Virus record (IMG/VR): IMGVR_UViG_3300010430_000025
Coordinates: 1 to 64,000 of that record
Reading direction: 5' to 3' (one strand)
DNA length: 64,000 nt
Origin: a virus
The first letter of the stretch is position 1. Every line of letters starts with the position of its first letter. Position numbers and translations under genes: made by a program. Shown one piece after another: positions 1 to 59,153 of this stretch. The notes below the pieces were generated by a model, which worked only from the letters and a program-made list of their open reading frames with translations, was not told the origin of the DNA and did not search any database.

Positions 1-300
1 CCTTTTTTCACAATCAATAAAGTATTGGCGGGCTTGCTTGCCTTTGGCGTTACCTTCTACCATAGCCAGTTCTTTAGCAGCATCTATTGTCAGTACATAA
101 TCGATTGAAGGCCTGCCGCCTAATGGGTTTACCCCCGATTGGGTGAAAACTGTATAGTCTTGGTTTTCAACTAAGCCATATTTGTCTATACGGTTTTTAA
201 TCCATGCTGAGAAGTCTTTTTTGCTTCCTAAAAACAAATGCAGGTCTTTTGCGCTTATTGCAGCATTTCCATTTTGGGTAGATATTTTTATCAATTCCAT
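1..300 (-). CDS. AntA/AntB-family phage antirepressor (3' end runs off the window)
   Basis: Manual translation (not in ORF track): MELIKISTQNGNAAISAKDLHLFLGSKKDFSAWIKNRIDKYGLVENQDY...GGRPSIDYVLTIDAAKELAMVEGNAKGKQARQYFIDCEKR, the typical AntA/B pattern. Confidence 0.9.
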   Translation of the reverse strand, partial: MELIKISTQNGNAAISAKDLHLFLGSKKDFSAWIKNRIDKYGLVENQDYTVFTQSGVNPLGGRPSIDYVLTIDAAKELAMVEGNAKGKQARQYFIDCEKR

Positions 301-304
301 GTTA

Positions 305-312
305 CAAATGTA
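305..312 (-). promoter_or_regulatory. Bacteroidota sigma70 -7 box (TACATTTG), 4 nt before antirepressor ATG
   Basis: Matches TAnnTTTG. Confidence 0.6.
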
Positions 313-6799: not shown

Positions 6800-6851
6800 A
6801 AAATAGCTTTTGACCTTTGAATAAGTATAAACTTTGTACTTATATTTGGGA

Positions 6852-7220
6852 ATGAAAAAAATATTTTATCTGCTACTATTTCTAGGAATAAGTTATAGCG
6901 CAAACTCACAAACACTTACAGACACCCTGTATGTAGAGGTGATTGAAGGAGCAAAAACAGATTTCACCTCCACAGTTACCCTTACTAAACGTGTAAAAAT
7001 ATCCGATACTTTAGGGGCAAAAGTTGTAATTTTAAATGAGACCTCTCAGATTACCTCTGACAACGATATTATTTTGTTTAAGTCTAATGGGATAGGGTTG
7101 CCTCAACTCACATCCGCGCAACGCCTAGCGTTAATTAGTGTAACTATTGGAACTGCGGTATTTGACACTACAATTAATCGCCCTTTATTTTATGATGGAG
7201 CTAATTGGATAATTTATTAA
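6852..7220 (+). CDS. signal-peptide-bearing fibre-like protein
   Basis: MKKIFYLLLFLGISYSANSQ signal peptide; GIGLPQLTSAQRLAL..VFDTT..YDGANW motif. Confidence 0.6.
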   Translation: MKKIFYLLLFLGISYSANSQTLTDTLYVEVIEGAKTDFTSTVTLTKRVKISDTLGAKVVILNETSQITSDNDIILFKSNGIGLPQLTSAQRLALISVTIGTAVFDTTINRPLFYDGANWIIY

Positions 7221-38338: not shown

Positions 38339-38923
38339 TCAATTGTTTTTAAGTTCACTACTAACATTAATATGATTAGTTTTTAATTTGGGTATATCAA
38401 CATTCCAGTCTACAAAGTTATCACCACTATCCCAACGTAAAAATGTATTAGGGCTTATAGCAAAGTAACCGTTTTCTAATTGCAATACGTGATGTCCTTT
38501 AACGCTCTTATCATTAGCATAACCAAAAGGATATGTACTATTATAAACTTCTTCTATAGTAAATAGATACTTGCCCCTATACTTGCTTTTATTCCTTGAG
38601 GTAAATACAGCTTCGCAGTTATGTAGATACCAATATACTATACACTCAGCAGAGGAGCCCTGACTATCCCACCATGACAAGTTTTGCTGTATAGTTTCTA
38701 ACTCATCGCTTTTAAAGTCCTCTGCATTCTCATTCCATACAAAAGATGATATTGGCAGGTTATTGTATATAACACCGCTTTCAAGCATAATGTGAAAGGT
38801 TAAGGCGTTATTAAGGGCTATTTTAGCCGCAAATATCTCACAGGGTAAATACCCTTGCTCATTGCTTATAACGTCCTTACGGACAAAGCATGGGACAACT
38901 GGAGTGTTTATGTTGCTTGTCAT
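38339..38923 (-). CDS. conserved phage hypothetical protein
   Basis: FHIMLESGVIYNNLPISSF, GKYLFTI, LENGYFAISPN pattern common in aquatic phages. Confidence 0.65.
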   Translation of the reverse strand: MTSNINTPVVPCFVRKDVISNEQGYLPCEIFAAKIALNNALTFHIMLESGVIYNNLPISSFVWNENAEDFKSDELETIQQNLSWWDSQGSSAECIVYWYLHNCEAVFTSRNKSKYRGKYLFTIEEVYNSTYPFGYANDKSVKGHHVLQLENGYFAISPNTFLRWDSGDNFVDWNVDIPKLKTNHINVSSELKNN

Positions 38924-39423
38924 TAATCAAATTTAGGTAGTGGAGCGTTTAAAATACTACCTGTAGGGGCAGAACCAATGGGGTATCCCTCAAAATCAAC
39001 AGGGGTATTGCTTTCCATTTCTTTAGCGCATATCTCCCTTTGCTCTTTACACTTTTGTTCAGCGTAGGCTATTATTAACTCTTTTAACCCTCTTTCGTGA
39101 AGAGTGTTTACTTCATCTAAAATATCTCCAGTTCCTACACCTATTAAGTGCGCTGCATCGTAATTAGATAATATATCTTCAAGATGCTCACTAAATTGTT
39201 GTCCTTCTTGTTTTTGTAAGTTTTCCAGTGTCATTTTTTCTTTAAAAATTATTATACTCCCTTTTTTGTAGTGTTCTACTATATCAAAAAAATCTTTTTC
39301 AAACCCCTCTTTTGTTTTAAGTGTTTTTGAGTGTATTACCTCATTTGTTTTGTTGTCAACAGCTAAATACTCTGTATTATCTTCTTTATACGGGTCAATC
39401 ACCATAGTATATCTATTTTTCAT
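38923..39423 (-). CDS. hypothetical protein
   Basis: Coupled ORF. Confidence 0.5.
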   Translation of the reverse strand: MKNRYTMVIDPYKEDNTEYLAVDNKTNEVIHSKTLKTKEGFEKDFFDIVEHYKKGSIIIFKEKMTLENLQKQEGQQFSEHLEDILSNYDAAHLIGVGTGDILDEVNTLHERGLKELIIAYAEQKCKEQREICAKEMESNTPVDFEGYPIGSAPTGSILNAPLPKFD

Positions 39424-39434
39424 TATCTATACTT

Positions 39435-39683
39435 TTAGTTTAATTTTACAAATCCCAAAACACAATACCCCTCTTTTATTCCCCATTCTTCACCTGTAAG
39501 AACATAAGATACATCTAAAGTTATTCGCTGCCCTGTATATTCGTTTGTGTTGGGTAAAAACTCTTGTAACAAGAGCGCGTCTCCAACTTTAAAATCCCTA
39601 TCGTTTTTTCTAACTTCAAAGGTTTTATCACCTAATTGAACATCCTTAAAATAAGGTGGTATTGTTTTTAACTCGTGTATCAT
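39435..39683 (-). CDS. DUF3850/ASCH-like (PUA-fold) protein
   Basis: HELKTIPPYF..V..GDKTFEVRKNDRDFKVGD. Confidence 0.85.
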   Translation of the reverse strand: MIHELKTIPPYFKDVQLGDKTFEVRKNDRDFKVGDALLLQEFLPNTNEYTGQRITLDVSYVLTGEEWGIKEGYCVLGFVKLN

Positions 39684-39697
39684 ACTATTAATAGTAT

Positions 39698-39904
39698 TTA
39701 AGTTTTCTTAAAAAATGTTTCTGGCTTCATTTCTAACCATGTTACTATCTTAGTAAAGGTTTTCATATCAACAGTTTTTTTGTTTATAGCTCTATTAACA
39801 GTCATACTGCCAATACCTATTAACTTAGCGACCTCTCTAACTCCCCTACCCTCAGACTTTAATTCTATAGCTATTGAAAACTTATCCTTATCAAACTCTA
39901 TCAT
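39698..39904 (-). CDS. HTH DNA-binding protein
   Basis: GVREVAKLIGIGSMTVNRA. Confidence 0.7.
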   Translation of the reverse strand: MIEFDKDKFSIAIELKSEGRGVREVAKLIGIGSMTVNRAINKKTVDMKTFTKIVTWLEMKPETFFKKT

Positions 39905-39919
39905 AAATATATATTTAAG

Positions 39920-40348
39920 TTAATCAGTGTATGCAATAAATTTAAAATGACCTCCCGAAAACCTATCAAACCTTCCGCCAAAAGTTCCTTTAACCTTTTC
40001 AAAAACATCCTCTTTAGTAATCCCTTCGGGATATACACCTTCACATATTTGAGTAAAAGATGTGTGACCACTCACTATATAATCAATCTTAGTATTATCT
40101 AAGTCTTGATAAGTTTTTATCTTGATAGGTGTGTATTTTACTTCAGCACGTTCGTTTTCTTTTTCTATTTGCTCCTCTCTACCGTCCCATTCGCAAGCGG
40201 GGCAATATTCAGAACTATTTACACAATAGCTGCAAGGAGGGTTAATATGGCAGCTACAAGAGCCTTCTTTTTCGTATTCATCTATAATACCAATACATCC
40301 GCCTCTATTACATGTTTCTCCTTTTAAATACCCTATTTCAATATTCAT
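39920..40348 (-). CDS. Cys-rich hypothetical protein
   Basis: CNRGGC, CSCHINPPCSYC, CPAC; own -7 box at 40353-40360. Confidence 0.65.
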   Translation of the reverse strand: MNIEIGYLKGETCNRGGCIGIIDEYEKEGSCSCHINPPCSYCVNSSEYCPACEWDGREEQIEKENERAEVKYTPIKIKTYQDLDNTKIDYIVSGHTSFTQICEGVYPEGITKEDVFEKVKGTFGGRFDRFSGGHFKFIAYTD

Positions 40349-40386
40349 GATTCAAAGATACAGCTTATCTTTAATAATACAAGTGT

Positions 40387-40851
40387 TTAATCTACATAAT
40401 ATCTTTCGTCAATAGAATAATCAGCATCAGCATCTGGGATAACAACACCTAATTCCTCTGCTGCCCATCGGTGTATCTTGTCAATATACTCACTCATAAT
40501 ATCTGTACTAACTTCTCCTTTGTTAGACATACTAAGGGGGATTTTATATATTTCTGCTGTATCTTCATTAATTACTTCTTTGAATAAGAATTGTGATTTT
40601 AAGAATTGGTGTACCTGCTCTTGCGAAAACTCATTACCCATATCATTAAGGGCTTTTTTTACAAAACCAACACACACGAAGTAATACCTAAGTTGTGGTG
40701 AGGTACGTCTTTTAACTGCTTTTCTAAGTGTTAGTTCAATATTCTGCCCTTCAAACTCTGTAAGGTGTTTTAGGAACTTATCTCTTTTGTCGAGGGTTAG
40801 TTTACCTTCTTTTACTGTGCCTGTAAAGGCGTATATTAGTTTTTCAGGCAT
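40387..40851 (-). CDS. NinB/Orf-like recombination protein
   Basis: RTSPQLRYYF, VHQFLKSQFL, MSEYIDKIHRWAAEELGVVIPD. Confidence 0.65.
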   Translation of the reverse strand: MPEKLIYAFTGTVKEGKLTLDKRDKFLKHLTEFEGQNIELTLRKAVKRRTSPQLRYYFVCVGFVKKALNDMGNEFSQEQVHQFLKSQFLFKEVINEDTAEIYKIPLSMSNKGEVSTDIMSEYIDKIHRWAAEELGVVIPDADADYSIDERYYVD

Positions 40852-41171
40852 TACAATAGGTTGTTTTTAGAAGTCCACACAGGGCAATTTATACATAAAT
40901 CACTTGCTTTTTCATGTGCTGGGGTGAAGTGCTTATCATAATTAAAGTTTGGATTGGTACAATACCATTCCTTCCATGTTTGTAAAAATTGCGTCTCGCT
41001 CTCCATGCCGTTAGTGTTAATAGATTGTTTGCCGTGTTTACAGGTTTTACAAGTTCTGTATTTTGGATTAGTCCAGCACTTGCAGTTTTTTTCGTGGTTT
41101 AAGCAACTTTTTTTATCCCAATACCCTTTCCCGCAATCAGCGATATACCTTGTTACTTTTTTAGACTTCAT
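40851..41171 (-). CDS. Cys-rich hypothetical protein
   Basis: Multiple CxxC motifs. Confidence 0.55.
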   Translation of the reverse strand: MKSKKVTRYIADCGKGYWDKKSCLNHEKNCKCWTNPKYRTCKTCKHGKQSINTNGMESETQFLQTWKEWYCTNPNFNYDKHFTPAHEKASDLCINCPVWTSKNNLL

Positions 41172-41178
41172 AATTATA

Positions 41179-41823
41179 TTATCTATTTATTGTAAGGTTA
41201 GTTTTTTGAAACATATCTTGCTGTAACAGGTGGTTTTCAATTCTATTAACAGCCGCATCAAAATAATCACTATCTAATTCGTAAGCATCTAAGTCAAAGC
41301 CGTAATCTGCACAAGCTATTCCTATTGAAAGGCTTCCGAAATGTGTATCTAATATCTTATCGCCCTCTTTAGCGTAGTTTTTTAAAAGCCATTTGTATAA
41401 GGCAACGGGCTTTTGAGTTGGGTGGATTTTGTTTTTTGAACTATTAGGGCTGTATAAAAACCCTTTTGGTACGGTATCAAAAGAAGTCCACGCAAATTCG
41501 TACATTGAAAAACTTACATTTTCAGAAAAAAGTTTGTCCCAAACAAGCAAACACTTTGTAGGTGGTAAATTAAAATAGTTTCCTCCCCAAATAATTTGAT
41601 TTTTAGAAACCCTAAATAGTTCTGTAAAAAATTCAGGTGTTGGAGGTTTGCTATCCCAATTAACTTTTTTGTGTCCGCTATGCGCATCGCCTTTTCTCCT
41701 GCCTATATTGTGATTAATGTTTATCCCATATGGCGGGTCAACAATAGCCAAATCAAAGGCATTATCGGGCATTTTTGCCATAGCCTCCATACAGTCGCCC
41801 AAGTGTAGGTTTATGTTATTCAT
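41179..41823 (-). CDS. DNA N6-adenine/N4-cytosine methyltransferase (beta class)
   Basis: GDC, IVDPPYG, HPTQKP, ILDTHFGS motifs; no cognate endonuclease adjacent. Confidence 0.92.
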   Translation of the reverse strand: MNNINLHLGDCMEAMAKMPDNAFDLAIVDPPYGININHNIGRRKGDAHSGHKKVNWDSKPPTPEFFTELFRVSKNQIIWGGNYFNLPPTKCLLVWDKLFSENVSFSMYEFAWTSFDTVPKGFLYSPNSSKNKIHPTQKPVALYKWLLKNYAKEGDKILDTHFGSLSIGIACADYGFDLDAYELDSDYFDAAVNRIENHLLQQDMFQKTNLTINR

Positions 41824-42074
41824 TATATTATCTTTTTCTTTTTTAAGAACTCCATACTAAAAAAAGCAGTAGTAGCACCTGATGCAGCACCAAAGGCATA
41901 AACGATTTTATCGTATTCTGTACCTATGCTTATTTCTTTTACATTGCCAGCCCAAAGCCAACTAATAATAAATCCCGATATAAATATTATCAAAACTTTT
42001 TTATTAGCAAAAGCCCATGTGCTTACACCTACAAAAAATACTTGTAAGAAGCCTGTTAGGAAGAGTAATGTCAT
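41823..42074 (-). CDS. small membrane protein
   Basis: Three hydrophobic segments. Confidence 0.6.
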   Translation of the reverse strand: MTLLFLTGFLQVFFVGVSTWAFANKKVLIIFISGFIISWLWAGNVKEISIGTEYDKIVYAFGAASGATTAFFSMEFLKKKKII

Positions 42075-42078
42075 AATA

Positions 42079-42492
42079 TTACTCCTCGTAGTGTTTAGTT
42101 TGGTTTAAAATATCAGTAATTGTTTTGTTGTCTAAAAACACGTACTCAATATCTTGGTCTGCATTGCCACTATCTATAGTTAATAGACGGCTTCTCAACT
42201 CTATTATATCCTTTTGCATTTGCTCTGTCTGTGTGTTCAATTTAGAAATAACAGTATTTTGGTTGTGTATTATTCCATCAACTCCTAATTGAGTTGTGTT
42301 GTTTAAAACAGCTTCTGCGTAGCGTTCTGATATTTCATTGTAGATTTTATCTCTATCTAATAAAAATTCTACCATAGCTTTTTTAGATGTTATTCTACAT
42401 CTTGAATCGTTTTTTTGAGCATCTTCCCAACTGTCAAATCCCCATTCAGTAGCAATGTCGTCCTTAATTTTTTCTAATAATTCTTTACTCAT
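42079..42492 (-). CDS. hypothetical protein (paralog of 59154..59477)
   Basis: Shares MSKE.L..IK, QMQKDI.ELR and TKHYE. Confidence 0.6.
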   Translation of the reverse strand: MSKELLEKIKDDIATEWGFDSWEDAQKNDSRCRITSKKAMVEFLLDRDKIYNEISERYAEAVLNNTTQLGVDGIIHNQNTVISKLNTQTEQMQKDIIELRSRLLTIDSGNADQDIEYVFLDNKTITDILNQTKHYEE

Positions 42493-42505
42493 AATATTAT
42501 TGTTG

Positions 42506-42865
42506 TTATTGTAATTCTTCTACTTCTTTTTTAAGTTCTTTAATCTCGTCTTCTAAATGAGCTATATCGTTTTCAAGGTTTGATATAGTGTCTTGCGCTT
42601 CTCTTAATTGTTCATAGGTTTCATTGCCAAAATCTCTTAGGCTAACATTTGCGTCTCGCAACTTTTCTAAGGTCATTCGCTTTGCATATCTGTTTTCAGT
42701 TGTTATATGTAAAAGCTCTTTAATAACAAGCTCTAAAAAGTAGTTTTCGCCACCCAAATCATCTTTAATAACTGAGTTAATTTCTTCTACCTGTTTTTCT
42801 ATAACTTCTATTATAGAATCTATGTCTCCGCAGGTGTGTGGTACTCCTGTGTAATCCTTACTCAT
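42506..42865 (-). CDS. coiled-coil hypothetical protein
   Basis: HTCGDID...LEKLRDANVSLRDFG. Confidence 0.6.
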   Translation of the reverse strand: MSKDYTGVPHTCGDIDSIIEVIEKQVEEINSVIKDDLGGENYFLELVIKELLHITTENRYAKRMTLEKLRDANVSLRDFGNETYEQLREAQDTISNLENDIAHLEDEIKELKKEVEELQ

Positions 42866-42868
42866 AGC

Positions 42869-43294
42869 TTAATCTATTTGTTTAATTATTTTACTAACGA
42901 TTTTTGCTTCTTTACCGTTTTTATGGTTAGAACTCCAAGTATATGCTTTCCCCAAAGCAGCATCTTTATCATAAGCATGTCCACTCCATACCCATAAAGA
43001 AAAAATGTCTTCATAAGTGTTTTGTAGAAAACCATGATTAACTTTTCTACACCTCATTAAAAGAGAAACTACAAAATAAGGTTCGCTTACTCCTTTTTTA
43101 TTACAGTAGTAGTTGTTTAGCGTACAAATCTTCTCGAAAGAGGGGTTTTTAGTTCTACCTCTTTCTATATCCCCAATTTGTTTTTCTGTTAAGCCAGTAG
43201 CTTCTGAAACGTCTTTTAGAGACAGATTAAGGTCGTTCCTGTAGTTTTGTAAGTCCTTAGCGGATAAGTGCTGTATTGTTTTTAGTTTATTCAT
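42869..43294 (-). CDS. XRE-family HTH protein
   Basis: LSLKDVSEATGLTEKQIGDIERGRTKNPSF. Confidence 0.75.
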   Translation of the reverse strand: MNKLKTIQHLSAKDLQNYRNDLNLSLKDVSEATGLTEKQIGDIERGRTKNPSFEKICTLNNYYCNKKGVSEPYFVVSLLMRCRKVNHGFLQNTYEDIFSLWVWSGHAYDKDAALGKAYTWSSNHKNGKEAKIVSKIIKQID

Positions 43295-43770
43295 AATATT
43301 GGTTTATATGGATTAGTTGGTAATGTAGTAGCATCTATAGCTTGGTTGGTGGAGATGAGGTTGAATAGGTCGAAATGTTGACTTAATAAATGAATCATTA
43401 TTTTAGGTGCAAAAACATCTAAATATAGAGTGCGGTCTTTGCCATTATAATAATCATAATTTACAACTAGGTCATATTTTGGATTGTCTCTAGGTCCGTA
43501 CTTCTGTTTCCATAAACGTACATTACTAACTAAACCAGAAATTCCTCTAGTTAGTTTTATAAACTCTATCAACTCCTCATCTGTTATAGATGATAAGGGG
43601 CGAAGAATAGGCTTAACACCTTTAAAATTTTTTCGACTGTATTGTAAAAACCATGTAGGATTAAGTGTTCTTATGTAAATCAAAGGTTTGCTTGTGTCCG
43701 TGCTTATACTTTCAACTTGAACCTTACAGCCCATATACAAATGCCAGTCTTTAAATTGTGTTTCTTTCAT
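43291..43770 (-). CDS. Bacteroidota phage hypothetical protein
   Basis: KPILRPLSSITDEE ... HFDLFNLI..QAID. Confidence 0.65.
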   Translation of the reverse strand: MKETQFKDWHLYMGCKVQVESISTDTSKPLIYIRTLNPTWFLQYSRKNFKGVKPILRPLSSITDEELIEFIKLTRGISGLVSNVRLWKQKYGPRDNPKYDLVVNYDYYNGKDRTLYLDVFAPKIMIHLLSQHFDLFNLISTNQAIDATTLPTNPYKPIL

Positions 43771-43894
43771 GGTTTTTATTGTTTTATTGTTTTCTATAAT
43801 CTGTTGTTTCGTTCTTTTTCATTATGGTTTTTACATTTCTTCCCCTTTATCCTGACCTTACTAATTAATACACTCTAAGTATAAGAGAAATATT

Positions 43895-44140
43895 AAAAAA
43901 GGGTCTCGGAACACTGTTTACCCAAGCATTGACACTTCCTTCCTGTGCCTCTCGTGAGGTTTTTAGGTCATATATAACACACGTTATTGTTTTTTGTCAG
44001 GACTTGCTCGAAGGGGTCAAACGAAGCAAGATTTTATACGTGCCCTTAGTTATATAAGGTCAATGTGAGTGGCTATTTTTATCATCCCTAACTATTCCAA
44101 TAGGGCATTGAGGCGGTACAGCCCATATAGAACCGCCATT
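43895..44140 (-). ncRNA. candidate structured non-coding RNA
   Basis: No ORF; four nested helices plus flanking hairpins; strand inferred from context. Confidence 0.4.
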
Positions 44141-44152
44141 ATGCTGTTAAAC

Positions 44153-44185
44153 AAAAAACCCTCTCTAACCGAAGTTAGAAAGGGT
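44153..44185 (-). terminator. intrinsic terminator with UUCG loop
   Basis: ACCCTTTCTAAC-TTCG-GTTAGAGAGGGT-TTTTT. Confidence 0.8.
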
Positions 44186-44223
44186 AACTAAACTATATTA
44201 TGAAATACTAAGAAAGGGAACTT

Positions 44224-44275
44224 AAAAAAAGAAGCGCCCTCACTATGTATACCAAAACAAAGAGCAGAAGGCGCT
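44224..44275 (-). terminator. large-loop terminator-like hairpin
   Basis: AGCGCCTTC...GAGGGCGCT-TCTTTTTTT. Confidence 0.55.
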
Positions 44276-44350
44276 ATATAATTTCGAAGATTTACTTCAA
44301 AGATAATACATGTTGTGCGAAATATTCTCATTTCTCTTTGTTTTGGTATA
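44248..44350. repeat. perfect 17-bp inverted repeat
   Basis: TATACCAAAACAAAGAG (44248-44264) / CTCTTTGTTTTGGTATA (44334-44350). Confidence 0.9.
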
Positions 44351-44396
44351 GCAAAGATAACGGTAAATAAATTTAAGATGCAAGAAAAAGTTTTTG

Positions 44397-44481
44397 TGAG
44401 GCTAATTGGATTCGAACCAATTGTGTATCAAAGTACCAGTTTTACAGACTGGCGCAACTCCACCATCGTTGCCGTAACCTC
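44397..44481 (-). tRNA. tRNA-Tyr (GTA)
   Basis: GAGGTTA/TAGCCTC acceptor, CCAGT-CTGTAAA-ACTGG anticodon arm, TTCGAAT T-loop, long variable region; CCA not encoded. Confidence 0.9.
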
Positions 44482-44486
44482 ATTTG

Positions 44487-44571
44487 CGGAGAGTGAAGGA
44501 TTCGAACCCTCACCAGTGTTACCTGCACTCCGTTTTCAAGACGGGGGCATTACCGTTAATGCTAACTCTCC
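44487..44571 (-). tRNA. tRNA-Ser (TGA)
   Basis: GGAGAGT/ACTCTCC, loop CTTGAAA, long variable arm, G73. Confidence 0.9.
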
Positions 44572-44575
44572 GTTG

Positions 44576-44662
44576 CGGAAGAAAAGAGAATTGAACTCTT
44601 GCCGCTTTTACACGGACTACTTTAGCAGAGTAGCGCAACAAACCAACATTTGCCTTCCTTCC
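44576..44662 (-). tRNA. tRNA-Ser (GCT)
   Basis: GGAAGGA/TTCTTCC, CTACT-CTGCTAA-AGTAG, long variable arm, G73. Confidence 0.88.
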
Positions 44663-44666
44663 ATTG

Positions 44667-44739
44667 TACTCGGAGCGGGATTCGAACCCGCAGCATACAG
44701 ATTTTAAGTCTGTCGTGTTTACCTTTTCACCACCCGAGC
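44667..44739 (-). tRNA. tRNA-Leu (TAA), short variable region
   Basis: GCTCGGG/TCCGAGT, ACAGA-CTTAAAA-TCTGT, 5-nt variable region, A73. Confidence 0.88.
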
Positions 44740-44744
44740 AATTG

Positions 44745-44819
44745 TACCTTGTATAGGATTCGAACCTATAAAATTTTTGTTCCTAAGACAAACGCGTATA
44801 CCAATTCCGCCAACAAGGC
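44745..44819 (-). tRNA. tRNA-Leu (TAG), short variable region
   Basis: GCCTTGT/ACAAGGT, TTTGT-CTTAGGA-ACAAA, 6-nt variable region, A73. Confidence 0.88.
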
Positions 44820-44821
44820 AT

Positions 44822-44853
44822 AAAAAAAGCCCCAAGATTTCTCAAGGGGCTTT
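44822..44853 (-). terminator. attenuator terminator directly upstream of the tRNA operon
   Basis: AAAGCCCC-TTGAGAAATCTT-GGGGCTTTTTTT ending 2 nt before tRNA-Leu(TAG). Confidence 0.8.
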
Positions 44854-44873
44854 GTATAAATATTATAATTTAC

Positions 44874-44942
44874 TCAATATAGTCCCTTAGCGTGCCGTAA
44901 CGACAAACTTAAATAAAGACTATATAGAGTTGTTATCTTCAT
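44874..44942 (-). CDS. leader (attenuator) peptide MKITTLYSLYLSLSLRHAKGLY
   Basis: Codons 6-15 CTA TAT AGT CTT TAT TTA AGT TTG TCG TTA are all Leu/Tyr/Ser; lies between a promoter box and the terminator. Confidence 0.8.
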   Translation of the reverse strand: MKITTLYSLYLSLSLRHAKGLY

Positions 44943-44947
44943 GGCAA

Positions 44948-44955
44948 CAAAGATA
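44948..44955 (-). promoter_or_regulatory. -7 promoter box of the leader/tRNA operon (TATCTTTG)
   Basis: TAnnTTTG, 5 nt before the leader ATG. Confidence 0.7.
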
Positions 44956-45012
44956 AAACAAGAATTTATAAAAGCAAGTGAAAAATAAATTTTGTTTTTA
45001 GTTTTTTATTCA

Positions 45013-45020
45013 TACCTTTG
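45013..45020 (+). promoter_or_regulatory. -7 promoter box of the rightward early operon (TACCTTTG)
   Basis: TAnnTTTG, divergent from the tRNA operon promoter. Confidence 0.6.
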
Positions 45021-45042
45021 AAGTGTTTAAAATTAAAACATT

Positions 45043-45303
45043 ATGAATATAAATATAGATTTGGATGAGTTTAGCGATGAAGAAGTGGTGAAATACGTTA
45101 TTAATAGGTATGAAAACAAAAGCCATTTTCCTCTTAATGAAGAGTTAAAACAGAAACTTGTAGAATCGGTTTCTGGAGTACAGCCCATTTCTGTATTATT
45201 TAATATTGAGTGTCAAAGCGTAGAGGGGCAAATAAAAATAGAACTACTACAAACAGCATTTGAAAAGTATAGTTTAGTTGAACTTGAAAATAAATTAAAA
45301 TAA
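45043..45303 (+). CDS. hypothetical protein
   Basis: First ORF of the rightward operon. Confidence 0.6.
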   Translation: MNINIDLDEFSDEEVVKYVINRYENKSHFPLNEELKQKLVESVSGVQPISVLFNIECQSVEGQIKIELLQTAFEKYSLVELENKLK

Positions 45304-58804: not shown

Positions 58805-58877
58805 GGGGCAATGGTGTAACGGTTAACATATTCGGGTCGCTCCCGTTTGAGTTCAGGTTCGAATCCTGATTGCTCCA
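58805..58877 (+). tRNA. atypical tRNA-like RNA (Ala identity G3.U70/A73; nominal anticodon CGC, malformed anticodon arm)
   Basis: GGGGCAA/TTGCTCC acceptor, GTGT/ACAT D-stem, TCAGG-TTCGAAT-CCTGA T-arm; anticodon stem has two T-T mismatches, loop GTCGCTC. Confidence 0.6.
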
Positions 58878-58964
58878 CAAAACTAAAATCAAGGTGAATA
58901 AGAGCGACCTTACGCTTATTGATTAGCTACCAATGAGTGGACAAAGCAACCTTTAATTAAAGTT

Positions 58965-58987
58965 AGGCGGTGTAACAGCCGCCTTTT
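58965..58987 (+). terminator. intrinsic terminator
   Basis: AGGCGG-TGTAACAG-CCGCCT-TTT. Confidence 0.6.
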
Positions 58988-59153
58988 ATTTAAAAATTAT
59001 GATTTGGAAATTAATAGCACTATTTGAGTATTTTATAATAGGGATAATACTTATAGGGAGTCCTAAAGAAAAAGGCGTTAGCAATCTTGTAATGGCGTTG
59101 TTTTGGGTAATATTAATTCCTATTGGAATGTGGCTAGATAGTAAAAATAAATT

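Follow-up and report, generated by a model that had tools for sequence, protein, structure and literature searches.

A probable leader-peptide attenuator upstream of five tRNA genes of a marine phage, with control codons that match these tRNAs

Introduction

Leader-peptide attenuators are well known from amino-acid operons, for which trpL, hisL, leuL and pheL are familiar examples, while the thr and ilvGMEDA leaders are multivalent. Here we describe a locus of a marine phage, located on the minus strand of a stretch of 64,000 nucleotides (nt). This stretch, called the window in the following, is the start of the complete 73,393-bp virus record IMGVR_UViG_3300010430_000025, which has terminal repeats. 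For this phage, two DNA runs from marine sediment are listed, which may be the source of the record, and no RNA run. With the attenuators of amino-acid operons the locus shares a short open reading frame (ORF), clustered control codons, the alternative pairings 1:2, 2:3 and 3:4, and a stop codon at a position where a terminating ribosome would block the antiterminator. Like the multivalent leaders, it would sense several amino acids together. Judged from its sequence, the locus is likely to function in ribosome-mediated (leader-peptide) attenuation of transcription, and its control codons correspond to the transfer RNA (tRNA) genes that it would gate.

The purpose of tRNA genes in phages, and the time at which they are used, are still debated. 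If our interpretation is correct, a phage may top up a tRNA only when that very tRNA runs short, and altered control codons should alter which shortage turns the operon on. It would also explain many of the small "hypothetical proteins" encoded within phage tRNA arrays, e.g., gp075 of the Cellulophaga phage phi4:1.

Organization of the leader and the tRNA genes

The features of the locus are as follows.

44977-44948, minus strand: promoter of the Bacteroidota sigma-A type, composed of TTG (44977-44975), a 19-nt spacer and the -7 box TATCTTTG (44955-44948)
44942-44874, minus strand: leader ORF MKITTLYSLYLSLSLRHAKGLY, 22 codons and the stop codon TGA (44876-44874), with the ATG at 44942
44927-44898, minus strand: control codons 6-15, CTA TAT AGT CTT TAT TTA AGT TTG TCG TTA, all encoding Leu, Ser or Tyr
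44930-44912, minus strand: segment 1, the 5' strand of the protector hairpin, over control codons 5-10 (taken from the minimum free energy (MFE) structure)
44909-44889, minus strand: inner hairpin UGUCG/CGGCA at the tip of the 1:2 helix (taken from the MFE structure)
44889-44872, minus strand: segment 2, spanning the last five codons and the stop codon; its partner is segment 1 or, via UAAGGGACU, the 5' arm of the terminator
44853-44822, minus strand: intrinsic terminator (segments 3 and 4) with the stem AAAGCCCC/GGGGCUUU (44853-44826) and a U7 tract (44828-44822)
44819-44744, minus strand: tRNA-Leu(tag), 76 nt by ARAGORN, Rfam tRNA score 60.4 bits
44739-44666, minus strand: tRNA-Leu(taa), 74 nt by ARAGORN, Rfam tRNA score 68.1 bits
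44662-44575, minus strand: tRNA-Ser(gct), 88 nt by ARAGORN, Rfam tRNA score 40.7 bits
44571-44486, minus strand: tRNA-Ser(tga), 86 nt by ARAGORN, Rfam tRNA score 49.1 bits
44481-44396, minus strand: tRNA-Tyr(gta), 86 nt by ARAGORN; in Rfam only the related tRNA-Sec model matched, below threshold
44911-44904, minus strand: second -7-like box TAAGTTTG within the leader ORF, lacking a TTG at the -33 position
45013-45020, plus strand: divergent promoter box TACCTTTG, serving the plus-strand gene 45043-45303

The leader ATG follows the -7 box at a distance of 5 nt, the stop codon precedes the terminator hairpin by 20 nt, and only 2 nt (AT) lie between the U tract and the first tRNA gene. The positions given for the promoter box, the ORF, the control codons, the terminator and the five tRNAs in the initial annotation, which had been made from the sequence alone, all proved to be correct. 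The upstream neighbour of the leader is the divergent gene 45043-45303 with its own -7 box, and no gene of the minus strand lies upstream. Hence, the terminator cannot be that of an upstream gene. It had also been claimed that the control codons cover all five anticodons. This is true only if U:G wobble is allowed, by which TCG is read by UGA and TTG by UAA, and CTT even needs extended wobble.

In bacteria, Leu, Ser and Tyr are the tRNA isotypes with a long variable arm, and leucyl-tRNA synthetase is the enzyme least dependent on this arm. Both tRNA-Leu genes of the phage (44666-44819, minus strand) are short (74 and 76 nt) with a variable region of 5 nt, while the tRNAs for Ser and Tyr retain the long arm. 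In the control set, short-armed tRNA-Leu genes of at most 78 nt were likewise present in numerous other phage loci.

The run of control codons compared with chance

The run of ten consecutive Leu, Ser or Tyr codons is not due to chance. Codons for these amino acids make up 24.3% of all codons in the six frames and 19.4% of those in the 69 long ORFs of the phage. Runs of at least ten occur twice in the six frames of the 73,393-bp genome, one being the leader itself and the other (10987-10955) lying antisense to a gene. Dinucleotide shuffling of the 89-nt leader did not give a run of ten in any of 20,000 trials, and shuffling of the 223-nt intergenic region did so in two of 20,000. Within the leader peptide, 12 of the 21 residues following Met are Leu, Ser or Tyr, compared to the 19.4% in the phage genes (binomial P 1.4e-4). 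TTA accounts for 50.5% of the Leu codons of the phage.

Folding of the leader RNA

The 131-nt leader had an MFE of -37.1 kcal/mol, compared to -22.0 ± 3.1 kcal/mol for shuffled sequences (z -4.9), none of which reached this value (0 of 200). In the absence of a ribosome, the MFE structure holds the 1:2 hairpin (-19.5 kcal/mol), the inner hairpin and the terminator hairpin (-15.7 kcal/mol), so that both the protector with its inner hairpin and the 3:4 terminator proposed before were recovered. As isolated duplexes, the 1:2, 2:3 and 3:4 pairings gave -11.9, -9.1 and -14.7 kcal/mol, respectively.

Nascent transcripts were folded with a 30-nt ribosome footprint masked at codon 7, 9 or 11 and with the RNA ending before the 3' arm of the terminator. 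The 2:3 antiterminator was the MFE structure in all nine masked folds (overall -10 to -15 kcal/mol), while each of the three unmasked nascent folds contained the 1:2 pairing. A ribosome sitting at the stop codon hides segment 2, which is the best partner for the 5' arm of the terminator. The 1:2, 2:3 and 3:4 pairings are mutually exclusive and can be selected by the position of the ribosome, with the reservation that the 2:3 helix is weak and that the terminator wins at equilibrium.

Promoter and predicted start of the leader transcript

The genome of the phage contains six copies of the promoter form TTG-N19/21-TATCTTTG. In Flavobacterium johnsoniae, the G of the TAnnTTTG box resides at -5 and the distance from the box to the transcription start site is 4 or 5 nt in probable promoters (PMC6847099). 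By this spacing, the predicted +1 of the leader is C44943 or A44942, and its messenger RNA (mRNA) should be leaderless or carry a 5' extension of 1 nt. A similar arrangement was found at the gene 39920-40348 (142 amino acids), whose ATG lies 4 nt past a promoter of the same type and whose product matches phrog_22771 over the full length (E 2.9e-49), which indicates that leaderless starts are normal for this phage. Altogether, ORFs of 142, 100 and 122 amino acids begin 4, 4 and 3 nt, respectively, after full TTG-N-TAnnTTTG promoters (40348-40360, minus strand; 300-312, minus strand; 6841-6853, plus strand).

For Flavobacterium psychrophilum, a transcriptome study (PMC9723704) reports 5.5% leaderless mRNAs and, moreover, clues for leader-peptide attenuation in front of amino-acid operons. 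The best relatives of the primase among cultured phages infect Riemerella, Cellulophaga and Flavobacterium (31-39% identity), which is consistent with a host belonging to the Flavobacteriia.

Three leader units in the Cellulophaga phage phi4:1

The clearest analogue is the cultured Cellulophaga phage phi4:1 (NC_021788.1) of Cellulophaga baltica. It possesses three units of leader and terminator that are not annotated as leaders and which precede 22 tRNAs in all.

Unit 1: box TATGTTTG, 4 nt, ATG, 22 codons (MKIQRLHLQELEQPIISGGTGV), terminator; tRNAs for Pro, Glu, Gln, His, Leu, Leu, Arg
Unit 2: peptide containing TKTGITVIDKTKGARA, partly annotated as the hypothetical protein gp075; tRNAs for Ala, Lys, Ile, Gly, Met, Asp, Thr, Val, Arg, Met
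Unit 3: peptide containing YNNSNWSFSY; tRNAs for Tyr, Ser, Asn, Trp, Phe

When the three leaders were compared with the three tRNA blocks, each leader fitted its own block only. The runs of 11, 16 and 10 had P values of about 1e-5, 5.5e-5 and 1e-5, whereas all six off-diagonal values were at least 0.25. Unit 2 was read by eye; it had been missed by our pipeline because only ATG starts were scanned and the start of this unit is probably GTG. Within the region 86900-92500 of NC_021788.1, gp075 starts inside a copy of the promoter and overlaps the apparent leader ORF of the second tRNA block. In their promoter and first 40 nt, units 1 and 2 are nearly identical duplicates of one another.

Phage phi4:1 and the phage studied here follow the same plan, i.e., a TAnnTTTG box, 4-5 nt, an ATG, 22 codons starting with MKI, a terminator and tRNAs, and both leaders have a G-rich tail that copies the 3' arm of the terminator. 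Judged from the promoter type, the hosts belong to the same phylum. On the other hand, there is no detectable sequence homology outside the tRNAs, the sets of amino acids differ, and phi4:1 has three units with 22 tRNAs instead of one unit with five.

Analogous leaders in other phage loci

A first set of 148 IMG/VR loci was drawn by a pattern for the D-arm of tRNA-Leu and a pattern for tRNA-Tyr. A terminator was regarded as strong if it reached -12 kcal/mol or better within 45 nt of a tRNA, and candidate ORFs were those of 8-50 codons that started with ATG and ended inside the terminator or within 100 nt before it. Before counting, we removed regions of less than 200 nt or containing N, and also those that duplicated another region in the last 150 nt. 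Of the 448 unique regions in front of tRNA clusters, 12 (including that of the window) showed a strong terminator together with an ATG ORF. These ORFs were scored for enrichment in the amino acids of their own cluster, and the assignments were permuted for comparison; the sum was 15.1 as observed versus 6.9 ± 3.0 after permutation (P 0.006; 0.025 without the window). When arrays were joined over gaps of up to 200 nt, a definition that was chosen post hoc after L135 and L053 had been seen, the P values were 2e-5 and 6e-5.

For replication, 117 fresh loci with 577 tRNAs were retrieved by a generic D-arm motif. They yielded 327 unique regions and 15 strong terminators, 12 of them with an ORF, and with the two array definitions the same test had P values of 0.0010 and 0.0015. 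Thus, the prediction that control codons co-vary with the downstream tRNA set in other phages came true in both sets as well as in the matrix of phi4:1. Examples of such leaders are listed below.

L121: leader MKTLSLTLLLLSSLLLSWLLRRSLVGTK, all five Ser codons AGY; tRNAs for Trp, four times Leu, and Ser(gct)
L135: leader MMTTKTYQTKQYQPQGGTPKGTTGYVMKSNMIK with a run of 23; tRNAs for Pro, Ala, Lys, Lys, Pro, Gly, Gln, Tyr, Thr
L199: leader MKNNTQQQYQPQPYPMDSGGSIVV; tRNAs for Tyr, His, Pro, Gln
L123: leader with the Leu codons CTA, TTG and CTT, each twice; tRNAs Leu(tag), Leu(gag), Leu(caa)
L207: three units with matching tRNA blocks, their leaders being rich in K/H/F/W, S/R and N, respectively

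On the 67,251-nt contig of L207, all three peptides begin with MRTI and two end with DLTTL, while the middle portions track the respective tRNA blocks, which suggests that the units arose by duplication followed by retuning. Some analogous leaders are not hydrophobic (e.g., QRLHLQELEQP and TKTYQTKQYQPQGG), and the composition thus follows the tRNAs rather than a property of the peptide.

The loci also have a common geometry. The best partner of the terminator 5' arm is found in the final codons of the ORF, whose stop codon is separated from the terminator by 15-31 nt. The locus of the window conforms to this, as its antiterminator strand occupies nt 53-63 of the 69-nt ORF. Folds of the analogous leaders again contain the 1:2 protector and the 2:3 switch, and five loci have leaders of 22 codons (the window, unit 1 of phi4:1, L099, L123 and L032). 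Three further loci (L085, L115 and L068) contained an LLLL run directly after an upstream tRNA and no ATG; they were dropped as unconvincing.

Searches for homologues and known RNA families

In a blastn search of 44300-45100 against 50,697 phage records, matches were restricted to tRNA parts, in four records, and none covered the leader. The exact terminator pattern had no match in IMG/VR, and tblastn of the portal protein against phages gave none either. Searches with neighbouring proteins and with the portal protein brought up four distant records (G001-G004), none of which has this tRNA array. Metagenome scans with the primase found no relative among 88 candidate stretches, and those with a 35-nt stretch of tRNA-Leu(taa) found none at all.

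At gathering scores, Rfam detected only tRNAs in the window. Its leader families remained below these scores, namely the trpB motif (27.2 of 59 bits), Phe_leader (24.8 of 55 bits) and His_leader (19.8 of 49 bits). The T-box was absent among the 24 Rfam matches with E up to 10.

Proposed mechanism and alternative explanations

The initial annotation had interpreted the locus as an attenuator of the trp/his type, and this is supported by its anatomy, by the alternative folds, by the position of the ORF at the predicted +1 and by the co-variation of leaders and tRNAs in other phages. According to this model, the host RNA polymerase would start at the AUG or 1 nt before it, and the 22-codon ORF would be translated while the leader is being synthesized. 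Fast decoding of codons 6-15 would allow the ribosome to reach the stop codon and to cover segment 2, whereupon the terminator would form and transcription would stop 2 nt before the first tRNA, with predicted 3' ends at 44822-44828. Without a ribosome, segment 1 would pair with segment 2 and termination would probably occur likewise. If charged tRNAs for Leu, Ser or Tyr are scarce, the ribosome would stall within the control codons, covering segment 1 and leaving segment 2 free. The latter would then pair with the emerging 5' arm of the terminator, and the polymerase would read into the Leu-Leu-Ser-Ser-Tyr tRNAs. The new tRNAs should in turn accelerate decoding and shut the switch, which would constitute a negative feedback.

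Several results have to be set against this model. The transcription start site is a predicted one, and if transcription began only 1 nt later, the AUG would be lost. If the second box (44911-44904) is active, it could yield a transcript without the start codon and segment 1. The choice of synonymous codons is inconspicuous, since 11 of the 12 codons for Leu, Ser and Tyr count as cognate by strict wobble rules, compared to 79.7% phage-wide (P 0.27). The postulated 2:3 antiterminator does exist, but with -9.1 kcal/mol it is weak and by itself nothing unusual; 5.5% of 20,000 random 19-mers matched this value, and 27% of 5,000 random 70-nt windows paired equally well with the 5' arm of the terminator. 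Footprint-masked folding, which had been suggested as a check, gave the expected 2:3 pairing for nascent RNA only, while the terminator hairpin stayed in all 11 full-length masked folds. Therefore, antitermination could only be kinetic. Among 385 regions upstream of clusters with up to four amino-acid types, taken regardless of a terminator, 3.6% reached p<0.05 and there was no excess of cognate runs; the cognate-codon signal is limited to units with a terminator. Even among the candidates with a strong terminator, L109, L058, L075, L256, L163, L187, both units of L213, L228 and L247 showed no enrichment, and none of the eight cluster starts of the crAss-like phage cr111_1 had a strong terminator with an ORF. 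Finally, no homologue of the leader was found, so that neither conservation nor compensatory changes can be cited for this locus.

The weakness of the 2:3 helix and the persistence of the terminator in equilibrium folds would also fit a terminator that is leaky at a low level, or one at which an antitermination factor of the phage or the host sets the timing in the manner of lambda PR'-tR' and Q. The ORF would then be incidental and there would be no sensor. A second promoter and terminator unit after the tRNAs (box at 44359; terminators at 44273-44226 and 44185-44158) points in the same direction, as serial terminators are typical of antitermination cascades. Nevertheless, we regard this explanation as unlikely. 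It does not account for ten consecutive codons specifying exactly the downstream isotypes, for the same co-variation in unrelated phages, or for a stop codon that follows directly on the antiterminator strand in locus after locus. An antiterminator gene or a nut/put-like element did not turn up, although no specific search for one was made. The leader might also be translated and gate the tRNAs, but gauge general translation capacity, i.e., ribosome availability or host shut-off, rather than specific tRNAs. The same architecture would indeed answer any slowing of elongation, and known examples such as ermC react to global slowing, as noted in a survey of premature terminators (PMC2965389). Such a sensor would need no particular codons, whereas the composition tracks the tRNA blocks within one and the same genome (phi4:1 matrix, L207), which makes it quite improbable.

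Moreover, the leader might be a gene in its own right, encoding a hydrophobic micro-protein of 22 residues or a small RNA of about 120 nt with its own promoter and terminator, the tRNAs being transcribed by leakage only. A stretch of about 120 nt is in fact bracketed by a promoter and a terminator, the peptide is rich in Leu, and attenuator RNAs can reportedly work in trans (PMC6614838, PMC7968998). However, the hydrophobic stretch is not long enough to cross a membrane, no promoter lies between the terminator and the tRNAs, which are only 2 nt apart, and analogous leaders are hydrophilic where the tRNAs serve hydrophilic residues. We consider this explanation very improbable indeed.

For the attenuator model, the physiological trigger could be a poor fit of the host tRNA pool to the AT-rich codons of the phage, starvation, or, as suggested in the initial annotation, the loss of tRNAs to a defence nuclease. 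A far-reaching version would see in the operon an inducible counter-defence, which senses the loss of host tRNAs for Leu, Ser and Tyr, caused by a host nuclease or by phage-driven decay, and which makes replacements. The Leu tRNAs would have shed a long arm recognisable by the nuclease, and several phage lineages would possess undescribed, codon-resolved tRNA gauges. This version appears unlikely to us.

Neighbouring features

Downstream of the tRNAs, a block of the minus strand (38339-43770) encodes an XRE-like regulator, a DNA methyltransferase, NinB-like and ferredoxin-like proteins (assigned by PHROGs) and resembles early genes. The second promoter, located after the tRNAs (44158-44359, minus strand), has the form TTG-N21-TATCTTTG. 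The 17 nt just past its box at 44359 are the exact complement of the loop in a downstream terminator-like hairpin, AGCGCCTTC...GAGGGCGCT followed by a T run. This hairpin is crossed by an ORF of 47 codons, and the further terminator is situated at 44185-44158 (minus strand). In the region 43880-44150 (minus strand), folding was no better than in shuffled sequences (z 0.44; 123 of 200 as good) and Rfam gave no match. A lone tRNA-Ala(cgc) was called at 58805-58878 (plus strand; Rfam 46.1 bits) inside a block of plus-strand genes. Neither a leader ORF nor a terminator was found before this gene, and a strong hairpin with a T run follows it at about 58966-58990.

Comparison with known systems

The attenuators of amino-acid operons gate genes for making or charging the sensed amino acid. 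This does not apply to the locus described here, which would gate five tRNAs and thereby restore decoding directly. It further differs from them in its ORF, which is predicted to be leaderless and resides behind a Bacteroidota -7 promoter, and it falls into no Rfam leader family. T-box riboswitches are also transcription attenuators that answer to tRNA charging. They bind the uncharged tRNA directly and have no ORF, whereas the leader of the phage is about 120 nt long and based on an ORF. Systems of processive antitermination are known as well, namely lambda N/nut, Q and HK022 put.

The trn operon of Anabaena is the nearest published case of extra tRNAs induced by stress. In common with the proposed behaviour of the phage locus, its extra tRNA genes are silent until translation is impaired. 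It is a cellular and not a phage operon, and its control is exerted by repeats overlapping the promoter and by a repressor (PMC8421152, PMC10272220). The terms "attenuat-", "leader peptide", "uORF" and "terminator" do not occur in these two papers. In the survey of premature terminators mentioned above (PMC2965389), there was no occurrence of "tRNA gene" or "tRNA operon", and searches of full texts retrieved no published account of leader-peptide control of tRNA genes. While the individual elements of the leader have counterparts in the attenuators of amino-acid operons, the novelty of the locus would be that tRNA genes are the regulated output of the attenuator.

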